From assembly GCA_963845495.1 (NCBI GenBank), contig CAWJTH010000039.1, positions 33,676 through 65,675 of the forward strand: a stretch of DNA of 32,000 nucleotides. Reading direction: 5' to 3'. Below the pieces are notes generated by a model. The model ran no database searches and had not been told where the DNA came from. It worked only from the letters and a program-made list of their open reading frames with translations. Positions within the stretch are counted from its first letter, which is position 1. Every line of letters begins with the position of its first letter. Of this stretch, positions 4,628-30,320 are shown in pieces. Made by a program: the position numbers and the translations under genes. The DNA is from an uncultured Chitinophagaceae bacterium. Its GTDB lineage: Bacteria; Bacteroidota; Bacteroidia; Chitinophagales; Chitinophagaceae.

Positions 4628-5452
4628 TTAAACTACACCAAATGGCTTTACAATAGCCAATACTGCCGCTGCTGTTAATGGTTCGTCAAATGCTTCGCTA
4701 GCATTTGCAGCCGAAATACTAGTGCCATTAATATTGGTAATGGTAAAACCAGCTTGTGTTACATTGTCTTCACCAGCATAACTTGCGGCTACACCGGCTA
4801 CGGTTGGAACCGCATTGGTAATCCAAGATTTAATGGTTGCATCACCCGTTGCTTTGCGACGAATAGTACGGATATGCGAAGCATGTCTTGCTTCAACTGA
4901 ATGGATATTTAATGCCGCTGTTAAATAGGCACCACCTTTTACAATTTCCGCAGCACGGCCCTTATATGCACGAACACCGGTATCTTCAAACGTTTGTGCT
5001 ACTGCCAAAAATGTGGCATAATTGGTCATTACATCAGAAAAAGTGCCACCTGCCGTAAAATCAAATGTAGGAACGGCTGGGATGGTTGCCCCAAGTGTAG
5101 TAAGTGTCGACTTTAAAAATGCTACGTGTGCATTTTCATGATCGCGGATAGTTGTTATCGCGGCCACATCTCCAGAGGCAATTAATCCCGATTTTGCTAC
5201 GCCTGCGGTATAAAATGCAGCTTCTAAATATTCAAGTTTCAATGCGTAAGTCAACACATCGATAGTTACAGAACTGGTTGGTTGGCCATAAGCTTTTGAT
5301 AACATGGAACCCAACGCAAATGGCACAGCAGCCAACGCAATCCTACCCCCAATTTTGCTAAACTGTTGCATAGCTTGGCGGCGGGTATCCAAACGGCCGT
5401 ATATTTCTGGATCTACATTTTCCAGCTCGTTGAAAATATTTTGTAAGTTCAT
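4628..5452 (-). CDS. Ferritin-like domain protein (Ferritin_2 / desiccation-protein type) with a twin-arginine-like signal
   Basis: 274 aa. N-terminal TRRQAMQQFSKIGGRIALAAVPFALG resembles a Tat signal. YALKLEYLEAAFYT and HSVEARHASHIR resemble di-iron ferritin-like helices. It is a paralogue of the adjacent gene. Confidence 0.8.
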   Translation of the reverse strand: MNLQNIFNELENVDPEIYGRLDTRRQAMQQFSKIGGRIALAAVPFALGSMLSKAYGQPTSSVTIDVLTYALKLEYLEAAFYTAGVAKSGLIASGDVAAITTIRDHENAHVAFLKSTLTTLGATIPAVPTFDFTAGGTFSDVMTNYATFLAVAQTFEDTGVRAYKGRAAEIVKGGAYLTAALNIHSVEARHASHIRTIRRKATGDATIKSWITNAVPTVAGVAASYAGEDNVTQAGFTITNINGTSISAANASEAFDEPLTAAAVLAIVKPFGVV

Positions 5453-6169: not shown

Positions 6170-6615
6170 AAAATAAAATGTTTACTTGTGAATAATAGTG
6201 AATAAAAAAATTCTTATTTGTAAACACCTACGGAAGAAAAGGAGGAAAAGGTTTTAAAAAAAAATAAAAAAACATTTATTCTTTTTATTGTTAATTGGCA
6301 CGGAATTTTAAAGTAATTGTGGTTTTGTAATAAATGGGGAATTTATTATCATTAAAATAGTTTTTATACTATTTAATTTTAACAAATAAGAATTAGATTA
6401 TTTATTTGACACTATGTTGGTAAAAGCTAACAAATAATGTTATTCCATAAATTTTATCGATATTAAAAAATTAAAATGTCTTTTTTATTTTTTAGATTAA
6501 AAAAATAAAAAATACCAAGTGTTTATTAAATAGCGTACAACTAATTAATTTAAGTTAGTTATGTGCTTAAAATAACGTTCAAAATAAAATCTGAAAATCG
6601 AATTTATCATATTAA

Positions 6616-6773
6616 ACACATAGGCACATAGGTTTGGGTTAAATATTTATTTTTGCTTACGGATGAAGTTTCAAACATAGGAAATACTAGATGGGAAGCT
6701 TCGCTTCCTACTATGCCACCTTGCAAACAGCCGTTTAAAATGGCCTGTCAAATTATCCTATGTTGCTATGTGT
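6616..6773. repeat. 17-bp imperfect inverted repeats flanking a 124-bp core inside a 766-bp AT-rich spacer
   Basis: acacataggcacatagg (6616-6632) matches the reverse complement of cctatgttgctatgtgt (6757-6773) at 15 of 17 positions. The catagg unit repeats with 8-nt spacing, and a third catagg lies at 6676-6681. An internal hairpin ggaag-cttcg-cttcc lies at 6694-6708. Confidence 0.45.
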
Positions 6774-6935
6774 TAAAAAAATATTGCATACTTATACAAT
6801 TCCAAAATAACAATTTGGGTTAATTAATGAAAACATAAAATAAAGTAAAACTAATATTGATATTAAATTTCGTACTTATATCTAAAATACAAAACTGAGG
6901 TAGAAATAATTTATTATACCTTAAGAATAAATTTA

Positions 6936-9900
6936 TTAATTCGCAATTCCAGATTGTTTTACAAATTTAATCATCCTAGTTAAAAATAAATAAATAGCAT
7001 TCATGTTATTCATTTTTTCGATAATTAAAATCCCATTTTTACCAACCTGTTTTAATTTAGCGTTATTTACTTGTGTATTTATAAATTGCAATAATTTATT
7101 AAAAGTTTCACTTTGAAAATAGGGTGATTCGGGGTTGCTTACAAAGAAGCATTTTAATTGCGAATTACGCAACATCATTTTCTCGAAACCTAGTTCCACA
7201 GCCATTTTGCGGCACCTTACGGTAATAAATAAATCTTCTACTTCGGGTGGCATTTTACCAAACCTGTCCACCATTTCATCATGAAAATTATCTAATTCTA
7301 CATCGCTATCACAATTATCTAAACGGGTATATAAACTTAAACGTTCAGTAATATTTTCTACATAACTATCCGGAATTAATATTTCCAAATCGGTATCAAT
7401 AGAACAATCTTTTACAAAATCATCTTGCTGCTGAATTTCTTCTTTAAATAAATCTTTAAATTGTTTACGCTTTAAATCTTTAATGGCTTCATCCAATATT
7501 TTTTGGTACATCTCGAAACCAATTTCAGCAATAAATCCGCTTTGTTCGCCGCCCAATAAATTACCGGCACCACGAATATCTAAATCTCGCATCGCAATTT
7601 GGAAACCACTTCCCAAGTCGCTAAATTGTTCCAATGTGCTTAATCTTTTTCTGCTATCGGCAGGTAAAGTACTTAATGGCGGTGCCAATAAATAACAAAA
7701 TGCCTTTCTGTTGCTTCGGCCAACACGGCCACGCAATTGGTGCAAATCACTCAACCCAAATTGATGTGCATTGTTAATAATAATGGTGTTTACATTGGGG
7801 ATATCGACACCACTTTCTACAATGTTGGTACAAACCAAAACATCGTATTTTTTATCCATAAAATCGAGGATGGTATCTTCCAGTTTATCGCCTTCCATTT
7901 GACCGTGGGCGAAAGCAATAGAAAGGTCAGGACATAAGCCTTGTATCAATCCTGTCATTTCGCGAAGACCGTTTACACGGTTGTGAATAAAGAAAACCTG
8001 GCCGCCACGTTCGGCTTCAAAATAAATGGCGTCGCGGATAAATTCTTGGTTAAAAACCTGCACTTCGGTTTGCACGGGTTGCCTGTTTGGCGGCGGCGTA
8101 TTAATGATGCTTAAATCTCTTGCTCCCATCAAACTAAATTGCAAAGTGCGTGGAATTGGCGTGGCGGTTAATGTGAGCGAATCGACCGTGGTACGCAAAA
8201 CTTTTAATTTCTCTTTTGCGGCCACACCAAATTTCTGCTCTTCATCAATTACCATTAATCCCAAATCCTTAAACTTTACATCTTTACCCAAAATAGAATG
8301 TGTGCCAATTAAAATATCAACCGCTCCGCTTTCTACTTTTTTTAATGTTTCCTTTTTCTCTTTGGATGATTTAAAACGATTGATAAAATCTACTGTAACG
8401 GGAAAATCTTTCAGCCGGTCGCTAAAGTTTTTATAATGCTGATAAGCCAAAATGGTAGTCGGAACCAATATGGCGGCTTGCTTTCCATCAACACAAGTTT
8501 TGAAAGCAGCACGAATGGCCACTTCCGTTTTGCCAAAGCCCACATCGCCACAAACTAGGCGGTCCATTGGACTGTCTTTTTCCATGTCTTTCTTTACATC
8601 AGCCGCTGCTTTGGCTTGGTCGGGCGTGTCTTCGTAAATAAAACTGGCTTCCAATTCCATTTGCATGTAATTATCCGGACTATGCTGAAACCCTTTCTGG
8701 GCCTTGCGTTCAGCGTATAGCTTTATTAAATCTTCGGCAATATCTTTAATTTGTTTGGTCGTCTTTTCTTTCAACTTGCTCCAAACTTCGCTGCCCAATT
8801 TGTTCATTTTGGGCACGCTTCCCTCCTTGCCAGTATATTTTGAAATTTTGTGCAGCGATGACAAATTCACGTACAACAAATCATTGTCTTTGTAGCGTAG
8901 GCGAACTGCTTCTTGCATTTTTCCACCCACTTCTACCTTTTGTAGACCACTAAAAATACCAACACCATGGTCGATATGCGTTACATAATCGCCAACCGTT
9001 AAATCGCGAAGCGTTTTTAAAGTAAGCGCTTTATTCTTACTAAAAGCTTGTTTAACGCGGTATTTGTGGTATCGCTGAAATATTTGGTGGTCGGTATAAC
9101 AAACGGCTTTTACATCCAAATCAATAAAGCCGCCGTGGATGGCAATCGGAACAGGAACAAAGTTAATTTCCGTGTTCAAATCCCGAAAGATGGAATACAA
9201 ACGCTCCAATTGCCGGGCTTGGTCGCTAAATAAGTAAATGGTAAAATTTTGGTTTTCCCAGTTTTTTAGATCGGCAATCAGCAAATTAAAATTGCGGTTG
9301 AAACTTGGTTGTGGTTTTGTGTTGAAACCGACCACGGACCATTGACGACGGACCCCAGTTGCATCGTCGTCTGTCGTCCGTCGTCCGTCGTCGTGCTTGT
9401 TAAAATGTAATGTATGCCTTTGAAAAACCTGCCTTCCTATTTCTTTCGGCTTTACAAAATCATCCCAAAGCACTTCATGTTTCGATAAAATTTCTTCGCC
9501 TTCCTCATCTGTTTTTACTTGCGCCTTGCTTCTTGATTCTTGTACCTTGTTTTCTTCTTGCAAAGCCATAAAAATCGATACATTATCTTCCTCAGCCTCT
9601 AAAATTTCTTTTACAAACTGCCAATCGTTAAACCAAATTACCGTGTTGTCGGGCAAAAAATCCATCAATGAAACCTTTTCGCCGCTTACAAATTGGGTAT
9701 CAACATTTGGGATGATGTTTACACTAAGCAAACGTTTTTCACTTAGTTGCGTTTCGGGGTCAAACAAGCGAATGCTATCCACTTCGTTGCCAAATAATTC
9801 TACCCGATATGGTTTTTCGTTGCCAAACGAATAGATATCCAAAATACCGCCGCGTAAAGCAAATTGGCCGGGCTCGTACACAAAGTCCGACCGAGTGAAA

Positions 9901-10418
9901 CCCAGCATCACAAACAGTTCCAGCAATCCGTTTACATCAATTGTTTCGGCTTGTTTAATGGAAATAGTATTGGCCGATAATTCTTTTGCCACCACTACTT
10001 TTTCAAATAAAGCCTCGGGATAGGTTATAATTAAATTATGGTTCGGCGAAGCCGCCAATTTGGTTAAACCTTCCGTTCGCAGCATTACGTGGCTGCTATT
10101 TAAAATGCGGTAATTTTTTTTGTTTTTGAAGGAAGACGGAAAATAAAAAAGATTCAATGCATTTTCCGTTAATGCTTCCAAAGTATTGTGGAAATAAGCG
10201 GCTTCTTCTTGGTCGTTCATTACAACCAAATGCGTTAATTGCGAAGCACTTTTGTGTTGAAACAAAGCATTTACAATCCACTCTTTGCTGCTTCCATTTA
10301 ATCCGTCCAAAAAAATCTGTTCGGGTTTGGCAAAAGAAAGCTTGTCCGCCAATTGAAAAATGCGGGGGTCTTTTAAATACAGTTCCTTCAGCGTATCAAG
10401 ATTCATTCGAGCCTGCAA
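6936..10418 (-). CDS. mfd: Transcription-repair coupling factor Mfd
   Basis: 1160 aa. CarD/RID-like GDYVTHIDHGVGIF; SF2 helicase motifs GDVGFGKTEVA, VIDEEQKFGV, LTATPIPRTL and LRGRVGRS; TRCF C-terminal domain. The track start is a TTG. The ATG at 10406 (MNLDTLKELY...) is the more likely start. Confidence 0.95.
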   Translation of the reverse strand: MQARMNLDTLKELYLKDPRIFQLADKLSFAKPEQIFLDGLNGSSKEWIVNALFQHKSASQLTHLVVMNDQEEAAYFHNTLEALTENALNLFYFPSSFKNKKNYRILNSSHVMLRTEGLTKLAASPNHNLIITYPEALFEKVVVAKELSANTISIKQAETIDVNGLLELFVMLGFTRSDFVYEPGQFALRGGILDIYSFGNEKPYRVELFGNEVDSIRLFDPETQLSEKRLLSVNIIPNVDTQFVSGEKVSLMDFLPDNTVIWFNDWQFVKEILEAEEDNVSIFMALQEENKVQESRSKAQVKTDEEGEEILSKHEVLWDDFVKPKEIGRQVFQRHTLHFNKHDDGRRTTDDDATGVRRQWSVVGFNTKPQPSFNRNFNLLIADLKNWENQNFTIYLFSDQARQLERLYSIFRDLNTEINFVPVPIAIHGGFIDLDVKAVCYTDHQIFQRYHKYRVKQAFSKNKALTLKTLRDLTVGDYVTHIDHGVGIFSGLQKVEVGGKMQEAVRLRYKDNDLLYVNLSSLHKISKYTGKEGSVPKMNKLGSEVWSKLKEKTTKQIKDIAEDLIKLYAERKAQKGFQHSPDNYMQMELEASFIYEDTPDQAKAAADVKKDMEKDSPMDRLVCGDVGFGKTEVAIRAAFKTCVDGKQAAILVPTTILAYQHYKNFSDRLKDFPVTVDFINRFKSSKEKKETLKKVESGAVDILIGTHSILGKDVKFKDLGLMVIDEEQKFGVAAKEKLKVLRTTVDSLTLTATPIPRTLQFSLMGARDLSIINTPPPNRQPVQTEVQVFNQEFIRDAIYFEAERGGQVFFIHNRVNGLREMTGLIQGLCPDLSIAFAHGQMEGDKLEDTILDFMDKKYDVLVCTNIVESGVDIPNVNTIIINNAHQFGLSDLHQLRGRVGRSNRKAFCYLLAPPLSTLPADSRKRLSTLEQFSDLGSGFQIAMRDLDIRGAGNLLGGEQSGFIAEIGFEMYQKILDEAIKDLKRKQFKDLFKEEIQQQDDFVKDCSIDTDLEILIPDSYVENITERLSLYTRLDNCDSDVELDNFHDEMVDRFGKMPPEVEDLFITVRCRKMAVELGFEKMMLRNSQLKCFFVSNPESPYFQSETFNKLLQFINTQVNNAKLKQVGKNGILIIEKMNNMNAIYLFLTRMIKFVKQSGIAN
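9330..9393. repeat. Heptamer-periodic inverted-arm element embedded in frame in mfd
   Basis: Arm 1 is gaccacg|gaccatt|gacgacg|gacccca (9330-9357). Arm 2 is gtcgtct|gtcgtcc|gtcgtcc|gtcgtcg (9366-9393). gacgacggac and gtccgtcgtc are exact complements. On the coding strand this region encodes HDDGRRTTDDDATGVRRQWSVVG. Confidence 0.6.
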
Positions 10419-10642: not shown

Positions 10643-10839
10643 ATTTTAAAAATTTTTGAGGTGATGAAGATAAGGGCAAAGCCATTTGCTAACAAAAAAA
10701 CATTTGTTGTTTAACCGTTGTTAACCTTAAATTAAAAAAAATTATTGATAAAAAACTTAGGTCTTTACCATAGCCAATAATTTTTGAAACGAGAACAGAA
10801 CTTATAGATTTTTGGAAACATGCCGTATTTAACATCCAT

Positions 10840-10847
10840 TACCTTTG
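10840..10847 (+). promoter_or_regulatory. Candidate -7 promoter box (TACCTTTG) directly upstream of the DsbA-like gene
   Basis: Exact TAnnTTTG match ending 4 nt before the ATG at 10852, suggesting a leaderless or near-leaderless mRNA. Motif match only. Confidence 0.3.
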
Positions 10848-10851
10848 CCAA

Positions 10852-11935: not shown

Positions 11936-12040
11936 GTAGGAAACTATTTCTTAGGCGTAAGAAACTGTTTTGTAACCGTAGGAAATAGTTTCTTAGGTGT
12001 AGGAAATGATTTCCTGGCCCTAAAAAATGATTCTTCAAAC
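11936..12040. repeat. Five tandem degenerate 21-bp repeats, each with a palindromic core
   Basis: The units are gtaggaaactatttcttaggc, gtaagaaactgttttgtaacc, gtaggaaatagtttcttaggt, gtaggaaatgatttcctggcc and ctaaaaaatgattcttcaaac. Unit 4 contains the perfect palindrome ggaaat-g-atttcc. Confidence 0.7.
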
Positions 12041-13875: not shown

Positions 13876-14829
13876 CTAATTTATTTCCAAAACAACTTTG
13901 CCATTTATACCGCCGTTTGAAACCAAATCTTGCGCTTCTGCTGCTTGTTCTAATTTTAATGTTTTGGCAATGTGAGATTTGATTTTTCCATCTTCCACTA
14001 GTTTTTTTCCAAATTCTAATTTTTTGAAAGAAGGGGTTGAACTTATAAACTGTGCATGAACGCCAAATTTTTCTGCCGATGCGGGAGGCGGAGGCATTAC
14101 AATGCTGATTAAATGACCACCTTTCTTTAAAACTTCAAACGATTTGGCTTGTGTTTCGCCACCAACGGTGTCTACTACCAAGTCTGCATCTTTTACCAAT
14201 GTGGCAAAGTTTTGCGTTTTGTAATCGATCACTTCATCCGCGCCAAAGTCTTTAGCTAATTCAATACCATTACCAGACGCTGTGCCAATTACGTAAGCAC
14301 CAATAGCTTTTGCCATTTGTACCATAACGCCGCCAACTGCGCCGGCAGCACCATGTATTAATACTTTTTGTCCTTTTTCCAGTTTAGCAGTTTCTACTAA
14401 AACACTATAAGCCGTAACAATGGGCACAGCCAAAGCAGCAGCTTCGTTGATTGAAATATTTGACGGCTTTATAGCCACTTGGGCCTCGTTTAATGCTACG
14501 TATTCAGCGTAAGTTCCACCAAATGTGGTGGCGAAAACTTCGTCGCCAACTTTTAACCTTGTTACTTTATCTCCAACCGCATCCACCACGCCAGCCAAGT
14601 CTGAGCCTGGAATACTTGGAAATTGCGTAGGGATTTGATCTTTCATTGAACCCGAACGCACTTTCATGTCAAACGGATTTACCGTAATAGCACCAACTTT
14701 TATCAGCACTTCGTTTTCTTTAAACGAAGGTTTGTCAATTTCCGTTAATTTTAATACACTAGAATCGCCGTAGTTTGAGAACTGTATTGCTTTCATTTTC
14801 TTTTGTTTAACGATGTATTTGAACAACAA
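13876..14829 (-). CDS. NADPH:quinone oxidoreductase / zinc-type alcohol dehydrogenase superfamily (MDR) protein
   Basis: Starts MKAIQFSNYGDSSVLKL...; GDEVF; Rossmann motif LIHGAAGAVGGVMVQMAK; C-terminal GKVVLEI. The likely start is the ATG at 14796 (M12 of the track ORF). Confidence 0.85.
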   Translation of the reverse strand: MLFKYIVKQKKMKAIQFSNYGDSSVLKLTEIDKPSFKENEVLIKVGAITVNPFDMKVRSGSMKDQIPTQFPSIPGSDLAGVVDAVGDKVTRLKVGDEVFATTFGGTYAEYVALNEAQVAIKPSNISINEAAALAVPIVTAYSVLVETAKLEKGQKVLIHGAAGAVGGVMVQMAKAIGAYVIGTASGNGIELAKDFGADEVIDYKTQNFATLVKDADLVVDTVGGETQAKSFEVLKKGGHLISIVMPPPPASAEKFGVHAQFISSTPSFKKLEFGKKLVEDGKIKSHIAKTLKLEQAAEAQDLVSNGGINGKVVLEIN

Positions 14830-14881
14830 ATTAAACCGTAGTTAGTTGTAACAGTTTTACACGCCTTTTTATAAAAACAAT

Positions 14882-15862
14882 TTAATAATCATATACTTCA
14901 GGGTTAATTGGAAAAGGAATCCGTTCTCCTTTCAATCCGGCAATAATATTTTTAGCTGCCATTTCGGCCATTGCATTTCTTGTTTCAAATGTGGCAGAGC
15001 CGATATGCGGCAGCACACAAACGCTTGGCATATTTAATAATGGATTGTCTTTTTTCATGGGTTCGGGATTTGTTACATCTAACCCTGCACCCCAAATTCT
15101 ATTGTTTTGTAAGGCTTCAATTAAATCATTTTCGTTGTGAATTCCGCCCCTTGCGGTATTAATAAAAATGGCAGAACTCTTCATTTTATTAAAAGCGGCG
15201 GCATTAAATAATTCTTTTGTTTCTGGCGATAAACTTGTATGTACAGATAACACATCGCTGTATTGCAACAATTCATCAAACGACACATATTTAGCATTTA
15301 AATTTTTTTCCGCTTGCTCATTTCTATTTCTATTATGATAAATTATTTTCATGCCATAAGCACCAATACATTTTTTAGCCAACTCAAACCCAATCCGTCC
15401 CAAACCAAAAATACCAAGCGTTTTATTATTTAATTCAATACCTAAATTAGCTGTTGGCTGATAAAATTTCCACTCATCTTTTTGTATGGTTTTATTTAAA
15501 TAAAATGCCTTACGAGAAACGGCCAACATCAATAAAAAAGCAACATCAGCCGTTGCGCCGCTTAAAACACCAGGCGTATTCCCAATAGCTTTTTTTAATT
15601 TATTGGCAGCAGCAATATCTACATTATCATAACCAACAGAAAGCAACGCAATAGCTTTTAAATGATCGCATTCTTTTAAAAAGTATTCGTCAATTTTATT
15701 ATTGCCCACACTTAATAATGCATCGTAATTTTTACAAGTTGCTATTAATTCTTGTTGTGTTAAATCATACAATTCGGTATGTTGTGTAATTGTACATCCG
15801 GCGTCTTTTAGTAATTCCAAACCTTTATCTGGTATTACTCTCGTAACAAAAACTTTCATCAT
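14882..15862 (-). CDS. D-isomer-specific 2-hydroxyacid dehydrogenase (glyoxylate/hydroxypyruvate reductase-like)
   Basis: 326 aa. NAD-binding GIFGLGRIGFELAKK and the catalytic region FINTARGGIHNENDLIEAL...GAGLDVTNPEP...LPHIGSAT. Confidence 0.9.
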   Translation of the reverse strand: MMKVFVTRVIPDKGLELLKDAGCTITQHTELYDLTQQELIATCKNYDALLSVGNNKIDEYFLKECDHLKAIALLSVGYDNVDIAAANKLKKAIGNTPGVLSGATADVAFLLMLAVSRKAFYLNKTIQKDEWKFYQPTANLGIELNNKTLGIFGLGRIGFELAKKCIGAYGMKIIYHNRNRNEQAEKNLNAKYVSFDELLQYSDVLSVHTSLSPETKELFNAAAFNKMKSSAIFINTARGGIHNENDLIEALQNNRIWGAGLDVTNPEPMKKDNPLLNMPSVCVLPHIGSATFETRNAMAEMAAKNIIAGLKGERIPFPINPEVYDY

Positions 15863-15941
15863 TTTTATTTAATGAATTTATAAATGAATTACAATCCCAC
15901 TTTTAATAAATCAATAAAAAATTATAAAAGGCGAACTACAA

Positions 15942-17132
15942 TTAAGCTAGAACAATATTAATTTTAGTTTGTTTTCTATAGCCAACCAATGCAACCAACA
16001 AGGCTATTAATCCCCAAATTAATAATTGCGATGTTACCATATTCCAACCACCTAATTTCCAACATTGCACACCAATAAATGTACCTATTGCACCGCCGAT
16101 AAAATAAATGGTCATATAAACGGTATTTATCCTACTGTGTGCGGTTGCATCAAGCGTATAAATAGTTGCAACATTGGTAACTTGGGTTGCTTGCACGCCA
16201 ATATCTAACAATAAAACAGCAGCCATTAAAGCAGCTAAAGAAGTGGGTAAAAATTTAATTAATAAAACACCAACAATTAACATGCAAACAGTAATTACTT
16301 GCGATTTTGCGGGGTTACCTTTATCGGCCAATTTACCAAAAATAGGTGCCAATAAAGCCCCGCCAATGGCTAACAAACCAAATAAACCAATTATATTAGC
16401 ATGATAATTAAATGGCGGGTTGCTTAAATGAAACGTAAGCGTCGTCCAAAAAGAACAAAATGCGCCAAATACTAAAGCGCCCAAAAATGCCGTTCTTCGC
16501 AGTAAAGCAAACCTTGTAAATTGAATGATTGTTGATTTAAGCAATGCAACATAATTACCTTGAAATGTTTTTCCAGCAACGCTTGGCAACGAAAATTTAA
16601 TAAATAGCATGGTAATAAAAACCATCATCGCAGAAATGCCATATACGTAACGCCAACCAAACCATTCAGCAATATATCCGCTAAAAACCCTTGCCGCTAA
16701 AATGCCAATTAAAATACCGGTAAATATAGTTCCAACATTTTTTCCACGGTTTTCTGTATCCATACTAGCGGCCATTGGCAATATTACTTGTGCGGCAACC
16801 CCCAGTAAACCAATCAATAAACTCATTACATAAATACCGATAATGTTGGTAAAAAAAGAAGTGCCTAACAACACACAGATAATTGCTAATTGTAGCAAAA
16901 GAATTAATTTTTTACGGTCAGTTTTATCGCCGAGCGGCGTAATAAAAAACAGCCCTAATCCATAGCCAGCTTGTGCCAGCACCGCAATAATACCAACTTC
17001 ACTTTCTTTTGCATTAAAGCTTGCGCCAATGTTTTTTAATATGGGTTGATTATAATAAATATTGGCCACGCACACACCTGCGGTTACGGCCATCACAATT
17101 AATTGCGACTTCGTCAGACCTTTATTTTCCAT
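15942..17132 (-). CDS. MFS transporter
   Basis: 396 aa and about 12 predicted hydrophobic helices. The MFS loop motif GDKTDRKK lies after TM2, and a second half-repeat motif LADKGNPAK is present. Confidence 0.85.
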   Translation of the reverse strand: MENKGLTKSQLIVMAVTAGVCVANIYYNQPILKNIGASFNAKESEVGIIAVLAQAGYGLGLFFITPLGDKTDRKKLILLLQLAIICVLLGTSFFTNIIGIYVMSLLIGLLGVAAQVILPMAASMDTENRGKNVGTIFTGILIGILAARVFSGYIAEWFGWRYVYGISAMMVFITMLFIKFSLPSVAGKTFQGNYVALLKSTIIQFTRFALLRRTAFLGALVFGAFCSFWTTLTFHLSNPPFNYHANIIGLFGLLAIGGALLAPIFGKLADKGNPAKSQVITVCMLIVGVLLIKFLPTSLAALMAAVLLLDIGVQATQVTNVATIYTLDATAHSRINTVYMTIYFIGGAIGTFIGVQCWKLGGWNMVTSQLLIWGLIALLVALVGYRKQTKINIVLA

Positions 17133-17144
17133 AATGTGAAGATA

Positions 17145-17275
17145 GAGCTGTTAGCTATGAGCCATGAGCTGTTAGCAATTAAAAATTTGAGATTTGAGAA
17201 ATTAATTAATTTATGAAGATCACAACATGGTAAGGGCTAAAAGCTAACAGATCAAAGCTCATAGCTGGCTTTAGC
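17145..17275. repeat. Heptamer-periodic inverted-arm element B (sequence-related to element A)
   Basis: The left arm is gagctgt|tagctat|gagccat|gagctgt|tagc (17145-17176). The right arm is gctaaaa|gctaaca|gatcaaa|gctcata|gctggct|ttagc (17236-17275). It shares agctatgagc and aaagctcat with element A. The right arm overlaps the last 8 codons and the stop codon of the CDS ending at 17252. Confidence 0.6.
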
Positions 17276-18209
17276 CACCCATTCTTTAATCGCATTTACG
17301 GTATCTTCAAAAAATAATTTGTAGGTATTTTCTGTAACAAAACCAATATGTGGCGTTCCTAAAACATTGGGCAATGTTCTAAATATATGATTTTCCGGCA
17401 GCAATGGTTCAATATCAAAAACATCAAGCGCAGCGCCCTTAATTTTATTATTTTTTAAAACATTAATTAAAGCGGCTTCATCTACCAGCGGCCCTCTTGA
17501 TGTATTAATAAAATAAGCTGTCGGTTTCATTAAAGCAAAATCACCGGCATTTATAATTCCTTTTGTCCGTTCGCTTAAAACTAAATGCACAGTTATAAAA
17601 TCAGCTTCTTTAAATAGAATATCTTTTGTAACTAATTTTGCACCAGGCTTCATTTGCTTTTTCTTCCGTAAGATTAGTACTCCAAGCAATTACCTCCATG
17701 TCAAATACTTTGGCGTAAGCGGCTATTTTTTTACCGATATTTCCAAGTCCTACAATACCAATTGTTTTTCCTTTTAAATCAACGCCTACTGTTGTTTGCC
17801 AACCACCATTTTTAAAACTTATATTTTCGGAAATAATATTTCGGGCCAATGCCATTAATAAAGCCCAAGTTATTTCTGGCGCTCCGCTTGATAAATAACC
17901 TGTATTTATTATTTCAATATTTAAATCTGCAGCGGCTTCTTTATCAATCGATGCATTTCTTCTGCCAGTTGAAACAATTAATTTTAAATTAGGCAATTGC
18001 GATAATATTTCTCTTGTCAATGGTGTTCTTTCCCGCATCGCACAAATAATTTTAAAAGGTTTTAAGCGTTCGATTAATGCGGACGTTTCATTTATATGAT
18101 CATTAAAAACAGTTATTAAAATTGCATCATTTAATGTTGACCAATCAGCCATTTTTAAAGCCACATTTTGGTAGTCATCTAAAATGGCAACTTGATATTT
18201 ATTTTCCAT
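17252..18209 (-). pseudogene. D-isomer-specific 2-hydroxyacid dehydrogenase interrupted by a single frameshift (pseudogene or sequencing error)
   Basis: Two overlapping ORFs cover the locus. 17610-18209 carries the N-terminal and NAD-binding part (GIVGLGNIGKKIAAYAK). 17252-17689 carries the catalytic part (FINTSRGPLVDEAAL...GAALDVFDIEP...TPHIGFVT). The frames join sensibly as ...EEKANEA|GAKLVTKDILFKEADF if one base is removed near 17641-17650. Confidence 0.75.
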
Positions 18210-22883: not shown

Positions 22884-22972
<89 letters not shown>

Positions 22973-25256: not shown

Positions 25257-25372
25257 GTGCTGATGTGCTAATTAGCTAACTAGCTAATGCACGAATTGTT
25301 ATTAATTTATTTTAAATCAATTTAAGTTTACTTTCAGGTCACATCAGCAAATTAGCACATCAGCTAATTAGC
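25257..25372. repeat. Periodic inverted-arm element C between the ATP-grasp and GCS2 genes
   Basis: The left arm is gtgctgatgtgctaattagctaactagctaatgcac (25257-25292). The right arm is gtcacatcagcaaattagcacatcagctaattagc (25338-25372). gctgatgtgctaatt (25259-25273) pairs perfectly with aattagcacatcagc (25351-25365). An alternative 11-bp register (gctaattagct) also pairs. Confidence 0.6.
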
Positions 25373-28597: not shown

Positions 28598-28646
28598 TTA
28601 TCCTACAAAGAAACGAAATAGTGAATTGTGAATTGTGAATTTTCAG

Positions 28647-28806
28647 TAGTGTCTCAGTTTGAAAGTTAATGCTTTAACCGTAAAGCAAAAAGATTAATCA
28701 AATCTCAGTTCAATGTTTCTGTGCCTCAGTGGCAAATCAATATTTGCCACTGAGGCACAGAAACACTGAAACTTTTAATGCTCAACTTCAAACTGAGACA
28801 CTATCA
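28647..28806. mobile_element. 160-bp MITE-like palindromic element, copy 2
   Basis: The outer inverted repeats are tagtgtctcagtttgaa / ttcaaactgagacacta. The inner stem is a perfect 23 bp (gtttctgtgcctcagtggcaaat / atttgccactgaggcacagaaac). The element is flanked by identical 9-mers aattttcag at 28638-28646 and 28807-28815. Confidence 0.65.
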
Positions 28807-28811
28807 AATTT

Positions 28812-28994
<183 letters not shown>

Positions 28995-29039
28995 TTGGGA
29001 GTGGGTGCTTCTTACTCACCATTCACTATTCACCACTCA

Positions 29040-30320
29040 CTATTCTACAATCGCTTCCATTTTTACGCTTCTACTACCTTTAATTAATAAATAATTGCCT
29101 TTACTATGCAAGGCTTGCCACCATTCGGCCGCTTGCTTCGCGTTTTCAAAATATTGGTACGGATGAAAAACATGGTTAAAATCGCCACCTACCAATACAA
29201 CGCTTTTCCATTTATATTTTCCGATCAGGTCGATCAAGTGTTCGTGTTCCTTAATACTTTGTGTACCCAATTCCATCATGGCCCCTAAAAAAAGCATTTT
29301 ATTATCTGCAGGCAATTTGGCAAAGTTTTCGATTGCCGCAGCCATACTACTTGGGTTGGCGTTGTAGGCGTCTAAAATAATATGGTTGCCATCCTTTTCT
29401 ATCATTTGGCTTCGGCTATTGCCTGGTGTATAATTTTCAATGGCAGCTTTAATTTTTTCGTCGGGCACATTAAAATATTTGCCAATGGTTACTGCCGATA
29501 AAACATTATAAATGTTATAAGCTCCAACCAATTTTGTATGAATGATAAATTCAGACAAACCGTTGCCCACACTAGCTTTTAAGAACGGTTCACTCGCTTC
29601 AACCCGGCCAATTATTTCTCCCATTTTTGTTCCGTACCAATGAATTTCTGATAAACCCTTTGTCATTGTTTGGAAATAATCAAAATCATCGCAAGCAAAA
29701 GCAACGCCATTGTTTGCACGTAAAAAATCAAATAATTCTCCCTTGCCTTGGCGCACGCCTTCTTCGCTTCCAAAACCTTCCAAATGGGCTTTGCCAACAT
29801 TGGTAATCAATCCATGTGTAGGCAGCGTATAATCACAATAACCGGCTATTTCTTTTTGGTGATTAGCCCCCATTTCAATTACAGCTATTTGCGCATCTTT
29901 TTTAATTTGTAAAATGGTTAGCGGAACGCCAATGTGATTGTTTAAATTTCCTTGGGTAGTATAAGTGATATAAACCGATGAAAGCACTGTTGACACCAAT
30001 TCTTTGGTGGTTGTTTTGCCGTTGCTGCCTGTTATTGCAATAAATGGGATATTAAACTGTTGGCGATGGTGTTTTGCCAACGCTTGCAATGCTGTCAATA
30101 CATCTTCCACCAAAAAATATTGTTCATCGATGGCAAATTCCACCTCGTCAACAACGGCCAAAGATGCGCCGGCTTGCAAAGCTTGCGAAGCAAATTGGTT
30201 GCCATTAAAACTTGGCCCTTTTAAAGCAAAAAAAATATCTCCGTTTGTAATTTTCCTTGTATCGGTGGCAATTGACGGATGCTGTAAATAAAATTGATAT
30301 AAATTTTCAATAGTGGTCAT
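29040..30320 (-). CDS. murF: UDP-N-acetylmuramoyl-tripeptide--D-alanyl-D-alanine ligase
   Basis: 426 aa. The Mur ligase P-loop is ITGSNGKTTTKE. Also present are DAYNANPSSM and the C-terminal domain LLIKGSRSVKME. Confidence 0.9.
   Translation of the reverse strand: MTTIENLYQFYLQHPSIATDTRKITNGDIFFALKGPSFNGNQFASQALQAGASLAVVDEVEFAIDEQYFLVEDVLTALQALAKHHRQQFNIPFIAITGSNGKTTTKELVSTVLSSVYITYTTQGNLNNHIGVPLTILQIKKDAQIAVIEMGANHQKEIAGYCDYTLPTHGLITNVGKAHLEGFGSEEGVRQGKGELFDFLRANNGVAFACDDFDYFQTMTKGLSEIHWYGTKMGEIIGRVEASEPFLKASVGNGLSEFIIHTKLVGAYNIYNVLSAVTIGKYFNVPDEKIKAAIENYTPGNSRSQMIEKDGNHIILDAYNANPSSMAAAIENFAKLPADNKMLFLGAMMELGTQSIKEHEHLIDLIGKYKWKSVVLVGGDFNHVFHPYQYFENAKQAAEWWQALHSKGNYLLIKGSRSVKMEAIVE

Follow-up and report, generated by a model that had tools for sequence, protein, structure and literature searches.

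A heptanucleotide-repeat hairpin translated within a hypervariable loop of Mfd in Chitinophagaceae

How does a palindromic array of 7-nucleotide (nt) repeats come to lie in frame inside an intact gene for the transcription-repair coupling factor Mfd, and was it inserted there once, as a unit, in a single lineage? The question is raised by the mfd gene of the 32-kb stretch of DNA analysed here (hereafter the window, position 1 being its first letter), which lies on the minus strand and carries, at 9329-9393, an imperfect inverted repeat with four 7-nt units in each arm. An earlier note on this DNA had proposed an insertion unique to the lineage. We favor, with a probability of roughly 55%, a different reading: a passenger hairpin of heptanucleotide repeats that occupies a permissive, hypervariable surface loop of Mfd. 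It is best explained as one local case of the 7-nt tandem arrays, usually in inverted pairs, that appear to pervade Chitinophagaceae genomes and that resemble the short tandemly repeated repetitive sequences (STRRs) and long simple sequence repeats (LSSRs) of cyanobacteria.

The hairpin and its host gene

The host gene, the parts of the hairpin and a second variable segment of the gene are as follows.

6936-10418, minus strand: mfd (transcription-repair coupling factor), the host gene, identified by its open reading frame (ORF), Pfam and PDB matches and an identical database protein
9329-9357, minus strand: 3' arm of the hairpin, a degenerate inverted copy, TGGGGTC CGTCGTC AATGGTC CGTGGTC G, encoding GVRRQWSVV
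9358-9365, minus strand: 8-nt spacer between the four-unit arms as the earlier note delimited them, gatgcaac in the mfd sense (gttgcatc on the plus strand)
9366-9393, minus strand: 5' arm, (GACGACR)x4, with all three frames used, encoding DDGRRTTDD (repeat finder and Tandem Repeats Finder)
9516-9560, minus strand: site A, a second variable mfd segment, a degenerate 7-nt run of NNNCAAG repeated about five times (lag-7 identity 0.53)

The mfd ORF is intact and runs for 1160 amino acids (aa) from a TTG codon or 1156 aa from an ATG at 10406. The ATG is the probable start, and a database protein of 1156 aa (P0001), 100% identical to the window Mfd, begins there. The Pfam domains UvrB_inter, CarD_TRCF_RID, DEAD, Helicase_C and TRCF all score above their cut-offs, and Mfd chains in the PDB match at E ~1e-190; one intact protein thus combines the UvrB-interaction, RNA polymerase-interaction, superfamily 2 translocase and TRCF domains that define Mfd. 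The hairpin is translated in frame as HDDGRRTTDDDATGVRRQWSVVG, ORF residues 342-364, directly before FNTKPQPSFN / FNTKPQPSFNRNF. The earlier note is borne out on both an intact 1160-aa ORF with the element in frame and its position just before FNTKPQPSFN.

Read on the plus strand, the arm at 9330-9357 is gaccacg-gaccatt-gacgacg-gacccca and that at 9366-9393 is gtcgtct-gtcgtcc-gtcgtcc-gtcgtcg, which agrees with the earlier description of two 4 x 7-nt arms; the register is exact (GAC or GTC every 7 nt), yet the units are not identical. A perfect 10-nt core, also described previously, was confirmed, with gacgacggac (9344-9353) 100% complementary to gtccgtcgtc (9383-9392). The 25-nt arms delimited by the repeat finder (9329-9353 and 9369-9393) are 80% complementary, and Tandem Repeats Finder reports period 7 with 4.0 copies at 9365-9392. 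The lag-7 identity of the 64 nt is 0.614, compared with 0.269±0.067 in 5000 dinucleotide-preserving shuffles (maximum 0.561), and the lag spectrum of the element peaks at 7 (0.61) and 14 (0.54). This lag-7 value is reached at four places in the 32 kb (1448-1512, 9327-9393, 17135-17216 and 28780-29042), all of them intergenic except the one in mfd.

Because none of the 5000 shuffles attains the observed lag-7 identity, the periodicity passes the shuffling test and chance is rejected as its source. Chance low complexity or an assembly artefact can also be dismissed more generally. The sequence does apparently come from an uncultured metagenomic assembly, and repeats can be mis-assembled, but a sequencing read is much longer than the element, the ORF is intact, and independent assemblies by the dozen, isolate genomes and complete chromosomes among them, show the same phenomenon.

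As RNA, the mfd-sense strand is predicted to fold at -37.6 kcal/mol (z -3.9 against shuffles), with 7 nt unpaired at the tip of the stem-loop, and the antisense strand at -32.5 kcal/mol (z -3.2); the predicted DNA fold is weaker (z -1.75). A scan of the window at Rfam gathering thresholds found only a tRNA (22888-22972) and no match at the element, and a promoter and terminator scan of 8900-9900 returned nothing at the hairpin. An intrinsic terminator inside mfd was considered and rejected, since no T tract follows the stem.

An AlphaFold2 model (47-sequence alignment; mean predicted local distance difference test score (pLDDT) 65.8, predicted template modelling score (pTM) 0.44; residues counted from the ATG, i.e., ORF numbering minus 4) places a loop at 335-355 between predicted strands at 331-334 and 356-360, with pLDDT <50 at 340-346. 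The element lies in this low-confidence loop, in keeping with the linker-like position suggested by the earlier note. The end of the 3' arm (SVVG) falls in the predicted beta-strand 356-360, aligned with a conserved hydrophobic I/V of relatives. Hence the idea of an insertion stands only in part: the loop is expanded, but the element was not simply inserted, given that SVVG occupies a predicted strand and a conserved hydrophobic position. Residues ~239-410 could not be aligned to Escherichia coli Mfd in single-sequence or profile searches; offsets and the secondary structure of the AlphaFold model alone point to a probable position of the loop where D1b ends or meets D3. When distant Mfd proteins are aligned with HMMER, the alignment usually splits at this loop, with the best (second) stretch starting at residue 354-362. 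Site A encodes part of a disordered stretch, with pLDDT <50 at residues 293-306.

Repeat arrays at the same loop in relatives

The close homologues of this Mfd, and the loci used for comparison, belong to Chitinophagaceae (Ferruginibacter, Phnomibacter, Ginsengibacter and others). Counted between '...HF' and 'FNTK', the loop is 25 aa long in the window, whereas its median is 17 aa in 119 close homologues (range 11 to 59) and 12 aa in 90 distant Mfd representatives (39-64% identity). The window loop is an expansion of about 13 aa relative to distant Mfd, whose shorter loops offer no orthologous segment of matching length that would speak against added sequence. In an alignment of 120 homologues, the site appears as a ragged low-complexity block beside the invariant QP[SA]FNR. 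Within clusters of Mfd proteins more than 90% identical, all internal indels fall at the loop, except for one single-residue gap upstream near site A, and the loop sequences themselves can be unrelated (e.g., SPNGKEETILF, TGNIQYSIFNIQF and ISSAPPATNNDQRSIISF). The loop before QPSFNR is the most indel-prone point of Mfd in Chitinophagaceae. The shortest loops, of 11 aa, are free of any repeat.

The DNA of relatives was compared over 82 loci (loci are cited below by L numbers). Tracts number 2.44 per kb at the loop site and 0.44 per kb at site A, as against 0.023 per kb in the remainder of the gene and 0.035 per kb beyond it, which makes 7-nt arrays ~70-100 times as dense at the loop as in the background. 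A tract, or more than one, is present at the loop site in 20 of the 82 loci, and relatives carry 7-nt arrays at site A too. The preference for seven is specific: in 1.46 Mb of relatives' DNA, lag 7 yields 27 tracts, and each other lag from 4 to 15 yields 0-5. The units found at the loop differ between relatives.

ATATTCA: L003
CAACGAT: L028, L046, L060, L063, L070, L079
GACGACR: L027, L066, L068
GACAACR: L050
AACGAGA: L065; AACAAGA: L075, L076
GTCAACW: L058

A unique insertion in this lineage is thus rejected on the evidence of both the homologue alignment and the relatives' DNA, as the same loop holds 7-nt arrays, with units that vary, in at least 20 of the 82 relatives. Three Mfd proteins of ~97% identity (L036, L027 and L050) have ACGATCA-like, GACGACA and GACAACA arrays, respectively, with periodic unit-wise substitutions between conserved flanks, a pattern that we take as the signature of array homogenisation. 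A GACRACR arm in the same codon phase, read as D-D-G-R-R/Q-T-T, occurs in the window, L027, L066 and L068, which represent three clades of the Mfd tree; the in-phase occurrence of (GACGACR)n across three clades is easier to reconcile with an array that is old or recurrent than with one recent insertion. Throughout the 1.46 Mb, GACGACN arrays are found in mfd only and always in the sense orientation.

Inverted pairing is less frequent at this gene than elsewhere. A reverse-complement partner within 450 nt accompanies 8 of 36 arrays in mfd and 22 of 44 outside mfd, as judged with a control of reversed, non-complemented sequence that is uninformative for units reading alike backwards, such as GAACAAG. 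In the sister lineages L065 and L075, the two variable sites of mfd are themselves complementary: the site-A array TCGTTTC is the reverse complement of the GAAACGA array at the loop (site B), at 8447-8465 / 8613-8653 in L065 and 10829-10848 / 10993-11031 in L075. These arrays form a long-range inverted repeat ~150 nt apart, spanning a conserved coding block of ~50 aa.

In our preferred reading, the hairpin makes up nearly the whole of a permissive surface loop, between two predicted beta-strands and directly before QPSFNR. Because seven is not a multiple of three, all three frames are used in each arm, and the product is a hydrophilic, low-complexity peptide with a 7-aa period, which for (GACGACR)n is DDGRRTT. 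Units would be gained, lost and homogenised by slipped-strand events, the second arm would be created and kept by inverted duplication or template switching, and arrays would occasionally be copied in from elsewhere in the genome. Selection would act as a filter only, retaining tracts whose total length is a multiple of 3, which have no stop codon in the frames read, and whose peptide is hydrophilic and compatible with a loop, with the last residues still supplying the hydrophobic strand position. The data themselves show the periodicity, the inverted repeat, its in-frame reading and position in the loop, the hypervariable, hot-spot character of the site and the occurrence of the same units at other loci; from these we infer the mutational mechanisms, as we do neutrality for Mfd function.

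A variable array of 7-nt units in a coding region also suggests a contingency (phase-variation) locus, at which one unit gained or lost would shift the frame, turn Mfd off and modulate mutagenesis. With units of this length, the frame survives only gains or losses in multiples of three; hypermutability of the site is seen at the population scale, and it is established that simple coding repeats drive phase variation in other bacteria (summarised in PMC4679880). However, the array is short and interrupted, with four imperfect units per arm, so that slippage would be suppressed; all of the roughly 200 full-length homologues examined are in frame, and the truncated members of the clusters lie on short contigs, where they are indistinguishable from assembly ends. 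We regard phase variation as very unlikely.

Hairpins and dispersed palindromes beyond the window mfd

The earlier note had likened the mfd element to intergenic elements, and its 7-nt architecture does recur at three intergenic places in the window (28611-28641 together with 29016-29045 in the third); no strand is assigned to these features.

1481-1574: intergenic hairpin between ruvB and gyrB, with arms (AGCTRTG)x3 ... (NNNAGCT)x4, 7-nt periodic like the mfd element
17140-17270: second intergenic heptamer hairpin of the AGCT type
28611-29045: composite intergenic element with outer arms (GTGAATT)x3 at 28611-28641 and (TCACYAY)x4 at 29016-29045

The composite element lies downstream of a Mur-ligase-like gene, and its outer arms enclose a palindrome and an array. 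The array, (TCAGCGG)13 followed by (TCAGTGG)13 at 28812-28994, is very homogeneous; it creates spurious ORFs, one of which (28729-29094) even matches the Pfam family LbR_Ice_bind. The enclosed palindrome, at about 28724-28763, is 40 nt long and perfect-looking (tgtgcctcagtggcaaat...atttgccactgaggcaca). Arm 2 of the mfd hairpin (CAATGGTCCGTGGTC) is identical at 13 of 15 positions to a run of the TCAGTGG unit. The two AGCT-type hairpins have unrelated loops, and for this reason the copies appear to have the 7-nt unit in common and no element consensus.

Unlike a simple empty site, the loop of the closest relative is itself occupied. L081, whose Mfd is 86% identical at the amino acid level, aligns to the window mfd DNA at 81-82% on both sides but not across 9328-9455, and has at the same site a two-armed hairpin with the unit GTGAATN / CACCATT. 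This is the unit of the window arms at 28611-28641 and 29016-29045, and the L081 hairpin has 14 identical nt (aaatagtgaattgt) in common with the intergenic arm at 28611. A GTGAATG unit is also present at two intergenic places in L068 (5790 and 9011), one of them between convergent genes. In a third clade, L085 (P0030) has yet another two-armed hairpin, AAATCCC / GAAATTT. The next relative, L082, has no significant fold at the loop.

G+C-rich stem-loops, too, occur in frame at this loop (L087; L035, L048, L053 and L072; L029; and L066, L068 and L078). An 18-nt core, GGGGGAGATAGAGGGGGC, matches exactly within the mfd genes of L066, L068 and L078 and is found at eight further, non-mfd places in six loci (L013, L023, L038, L049, L050 and L074); two inverted copies of it flank an ~85-nt A+T-rich core in both L023 and L050. 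Because this dispersed repeat is present both in mfd and at non-mfd places, in-frame colonisation of the Mfd loop by palindromic repeats does happen in Chitinophagaceae. The earlier note had considered such colonisation familiar from Rickettsia and was aware of no case in Bacteroidota. The GGGGGAGATAGAGGGGGC repeat in relatives supports the occurrence; in-frame palindromes in repair genes have, however, been documented before outside Rickettsia (PMC3733652).

Several observations on the G+C-rich repeats stand on their own. The longer form CCTCCCC-NNNN-GGGGGAGATAGAGGGGGC was seen at L023 995-1150, L050 1930-2075 and L027 1005-1160 and in the mfd loop of L066, L068 and L078, where the single copy is translated in frame as FPPPAGEIEGA. 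The inverted pair looks like a miniature inverted-repeat transposable element (MITE), and its A+T-rich core is conserved between L023 and L050. In L023, the repeat directly adjoins a heptamer hairpin (1161-1235). The loop of L087 (P0027) contains two G+C-rich stem-loops, gcgggcgggcttcggcagcccgccc and cctgccttcggctttcgggcagg, in frame as AGGLRQPALAG...LPSAFGQA, so that a further class of hairpin is represented at this site.

These dispersed copies bring up the idea of a discrete, non-autonomous mobile palindromic element, akin to a Rickettsia palindromic element (RPE), a repetitive extragenic palindrome (REP) or its paired form (REPIN), or a MITE, which would have entered a permissive site of mfd in this lineage as a whole and in a single event. 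Hairpins with the same heptamer unit do occur at several loci per genome, as the AGCT type at 1481 and 17140 in the window, GTGAATG in L068, GTCCACN at 5165 and 9765 in L031 and GAACAAG, present twice in L063, illustrate. The 14 nt common to the L081 hairpin and the window arm, the GGGGGAGATAGAGGGGGC palindrome and the complete replacement of loop contents between Mfd proteins more than 90% identical all favor such an origin, for which REPs inside uvrA, uvrB, uvrD, polA and recBCD provide a precedent (PMC3733652). Against it, a domain scan of 26 ORFs and the repeat searches found no second copy of the mfd unit, no target-site duplication and no transposase or REP-associated tyrosine transposase (RAYT) in the window, and in the 1.46 Mb of relatives GACGACN arrays are confined to mfd in one orientation. 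Same-unit hairpins have nothing but the unit in common, many relatives are single-armed (as the 8 of 36 partnered arrays attest), and change among close relatives is gradual and unit-wise. Insertion of a mobile element is, on balance, an unlikely though serious alternative.

A second alternative is that the hairpin is functional and under selection in mfd, acting on the mRNA, an antisense transcript or single-stranded DNA as a pause, processing or regulatory site. The arm-loop-arm layout is found at the same site with unrelated sequences in the window, L081 and L085, and the folds go far beyond shuffles (z -3.9 in the window, -5.0 in L081 and -7.2 in L085, the last two on the antisense strand, with -1.6 and -1.3 on the sense strand). 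Every mismatch in the stems of L081 (11020-11107) and L085 reads A.C in the mfd sense and G.U in the antisense, as would be expected if selection acted on pairing in one strand, and the complementary arrays at sites A and B of L065 and L075 would also fit. The favored strand is inconsistent, however, as the window hairpin, unlike those of L081 and L085, folds slightly better on the sense strand. Most relatives have one arm or none, the 11-aa loops and L082 do without a hairpin, and the window element has neither a terminator-like tail nor an Rfam match. The strand asymmetry could be due to selection on structure, or it could arise as a by-product if T and stop codons are avoided in the coding strand. 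A selected function seems improbable to us.

The passenger reading also has points against it. The census of GACGACN hairpins in this genome covers the 32-kb window, the AlphaFold model is of modest overall quality (pTM 0.44), and neutrality for Mfd function is assumed. Tolerance alone does not account for a hot spot of roughly 100-fold. Finally, there are the unrelated two-armed hairpins at the same site in L081 and L085: because the arm-loop-arm layout is kept while the sequence is replaced, it looks more like repeated whole-hairpin insertion or selection for pairing than pure in-situ drift. A bolder conjecture, to which we give little credence, would take up these points. Some active process in Chitinophagaceae may generate or copy inverted 7-nt arrays regardless of sequence, with the mfd loop as its strongest target, the layout maintained and pairing kept on one strand. 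The hairpin would in that case be no neutral passenger; either an enzyme that targets hairpins would produce it again and again, or it would be a selected structure with a role in Mfd biology. One example, if this were true, would be a site that is difficult to transcribe and thereby exerts feedback on the expression of the very factor that removes stalled RNA polymerase.

Heptamer arrays probably serve as linker-coding DNA outside mfd as well. In L068, the inter-domain segments TTDNGQQTT and TTDHRPQTTDNGQQ of a 585-aa protein (14501-16258, minus strand) are encoded by GACAACR heptamers; the unit family is that of the L068 mfd loop. Judged by eye, this protein resembles a 2-oxoacid dehydrogenase E2 with lipoyl domains.

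Further features of the window are recorded here for completeness. The spacer downstream of mfd (6170-6935) is unusually long (about 770 nt) and very A+T-rich and has no Rfam match. It contains an inverted pair, cacataggcacatagg (6617-6632) and cctatgttgctatgtg (6757-6772), 124 nt apart and enclosing a small hairpin, gggaagcttcgcttcc (about 6694-6709). Elsewhere, the gene for a D-2-hydroxyacid dehydrogenase is broken into two overlapping ORFs at 17252-17689 and 17610-18209, both on the minus strand, which together make one 2-Hacid_dh / 2-Hacid_dh_C protein (a frameshift, pseudogene or sequencing error); its 3' end abuts the heptamer hairpin at 17140-17270, and an intact paralogue lies at 14882-15862. 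Tandem Repeats Finder also reports two intergenic repeats, a 21-nt unit present 3.7 times at 11936-12013 (GTAGGAAACTATTTCTTAGGC), upstream of an amidohydrolase gene, and a 16-nt unit present 2.1 times at 25340-25372 (CACATCAGCAAATTAG).

Relation to known repeat systems

By its defining features, the element works like a translated STRR/LSSR array and is not an RPE, REP or MITE. In the summary of Mrazek 2007 given in PMC4679880, heptamers are the commonest LSSR class in prokaryotes, with slippage as the proposed mechanism, and heptamer arrays are described from Cyanobacteria and a few Bacteroidetes, occasionally inside ORFs (PMC4679880). The head-to-tail 7-nt unit and the periodicity beyond chance are those of a heptanucleotide LSSR/STRR. 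As in cyanobacteria, tandem 7-nt units of several families per genome are spread over many, mostly intergenic loci; the GACGACN unit itself is present once in the 32-kb window, whereas the AGCT type is present at 1481 and 17140 and several units recur in relatives. The arrays of Chitinophagaceae differ in their shortness (3-5 units) and in their usual layout of hairpin-forming inverted pairs, and the window array differs further in being translated inside a conserved protein, at one Mfd loop where such arrays are concentrated ~100-fold. In the strict sense, STRRs are defined by a heterocystous cyanobacterial host, and the closest homologues here are from Chitinophagaceae. In work by Vioque from 1997, STRRs inserted in the RNase P RNA gene reportedly extend a helix.

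A second comparison is with the TAACTGA heptamers of Beggiatoaceae, Cyanobacteria and five Bacteroidetes (MacGregor 2015, PMC4679880). These are likewise heptamer tandems in Bacteroidetes, mostly intergenic and sometimes accompanied by other heptamer arrays in the same spacer, with occasional repeats in ORFs at peripheral or permissive positions, where they encode a 7-aa periodic peptide. They consist, however, of one specific unit, are often placed just upstream of start codons and are almost never inverted, whereas Chitinophagaceae, which are not among the taxa reported for them (PMC4679880), have many units, an inverted-pair architecture and a recurrent internal position in an essential-pathway gene.

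RPEs resemble the window element as palindromic repeats that lie in frame in an intact conserved gene at a permissive surface position. Each RPE family, however, comprises many copies of roughly 100-150 bp that follow one consensus, and the Rickettsia hosts belong to another phylum; the window element, at 64 nt, has no consensus beyond the 7-nt unit and no second copy in the window. In-frame palindromic REPs in genes for excision repair and recombination are on record from several phyla, and RPEs from Rickettsia (PMC3733652). Like the GTAG- and CGTC-tagged REPs that Di Nocera et al. (2013, PMC3733652) located within genes, often those of replication and excision repair, the window element is a small palindrome in frame. 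REPs are usually extragenic, downstream of genes, and G.T pairing in their stems has been taken as a sign of transcription; mfd is not listed among the REP-bearing genes (PMC3733652). They are 20-40 nt long, with a conserved terminal tetranucleotide and no 7-nt periodicity (PMC3733652), unlike the window element, in which CGTC is repeated only within the GTCGTCC unit and is not a distinct terminal tag, and whose ~25-bp stem is longer than typical. REPs are multi-copy, whereas this unit has one copy in the window and is confined to mfd in relatives. The G+C-rich mfd repeat of L066, L068 and L078 is closer to REPs than the window element is.

MITEs, defined by terminal inverted repeats, a target-site duplication and a length of 70-300 bp, are a poor match for an element of 64 nt with only a weak flanking similarity, GTTGAAAC / GTTAAAAT; no clean empty site is available in the closest relative, L081, where another hairpin occupies the position. 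In Nostoc, very small dispersed repeats are reported by Elhai et al. (2008) to have inserted both into conserved genes, where the frame is preserved, and into tandem arrays of heptamers, and no transposase has been recognised for them. Those repeats are defined sequences of 21-27 nt, whereas here the heptamer array itself is the repeating entity. Our literature searches, whose coverage is incomplete, returned no account of 7-nt-array hairpins in Chitinophagaceae or Sphingobacteriia or of a hot spot in Mfd.

The single instance in the window is modest, and the family-wide hot spot to which it led is more interesting. The Mfd loop amounts to a natural experiment in which one position of a conserved repair protein is refilled repeatedly with unrelated repeats, even among Mfd proteins more than 90% identical, and it makes the origin and spread of such repeats, an open question since STRRs were described, and the constraints imposed by translation tractable by comparative and population genomics. 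In practical terms, the site could serve as a strain-level marker, it breaks Mfd alignments, and arrays of this type give rise to ORFs and domain matches that are spurious. Should this view prove correct, Chitinophagaceae would join the cyanobacteria as a lineage with heptanucleotide-seeded genomes, one in which the arrays are mostly hairpins and are also recruited as coding material for loops and linkers.

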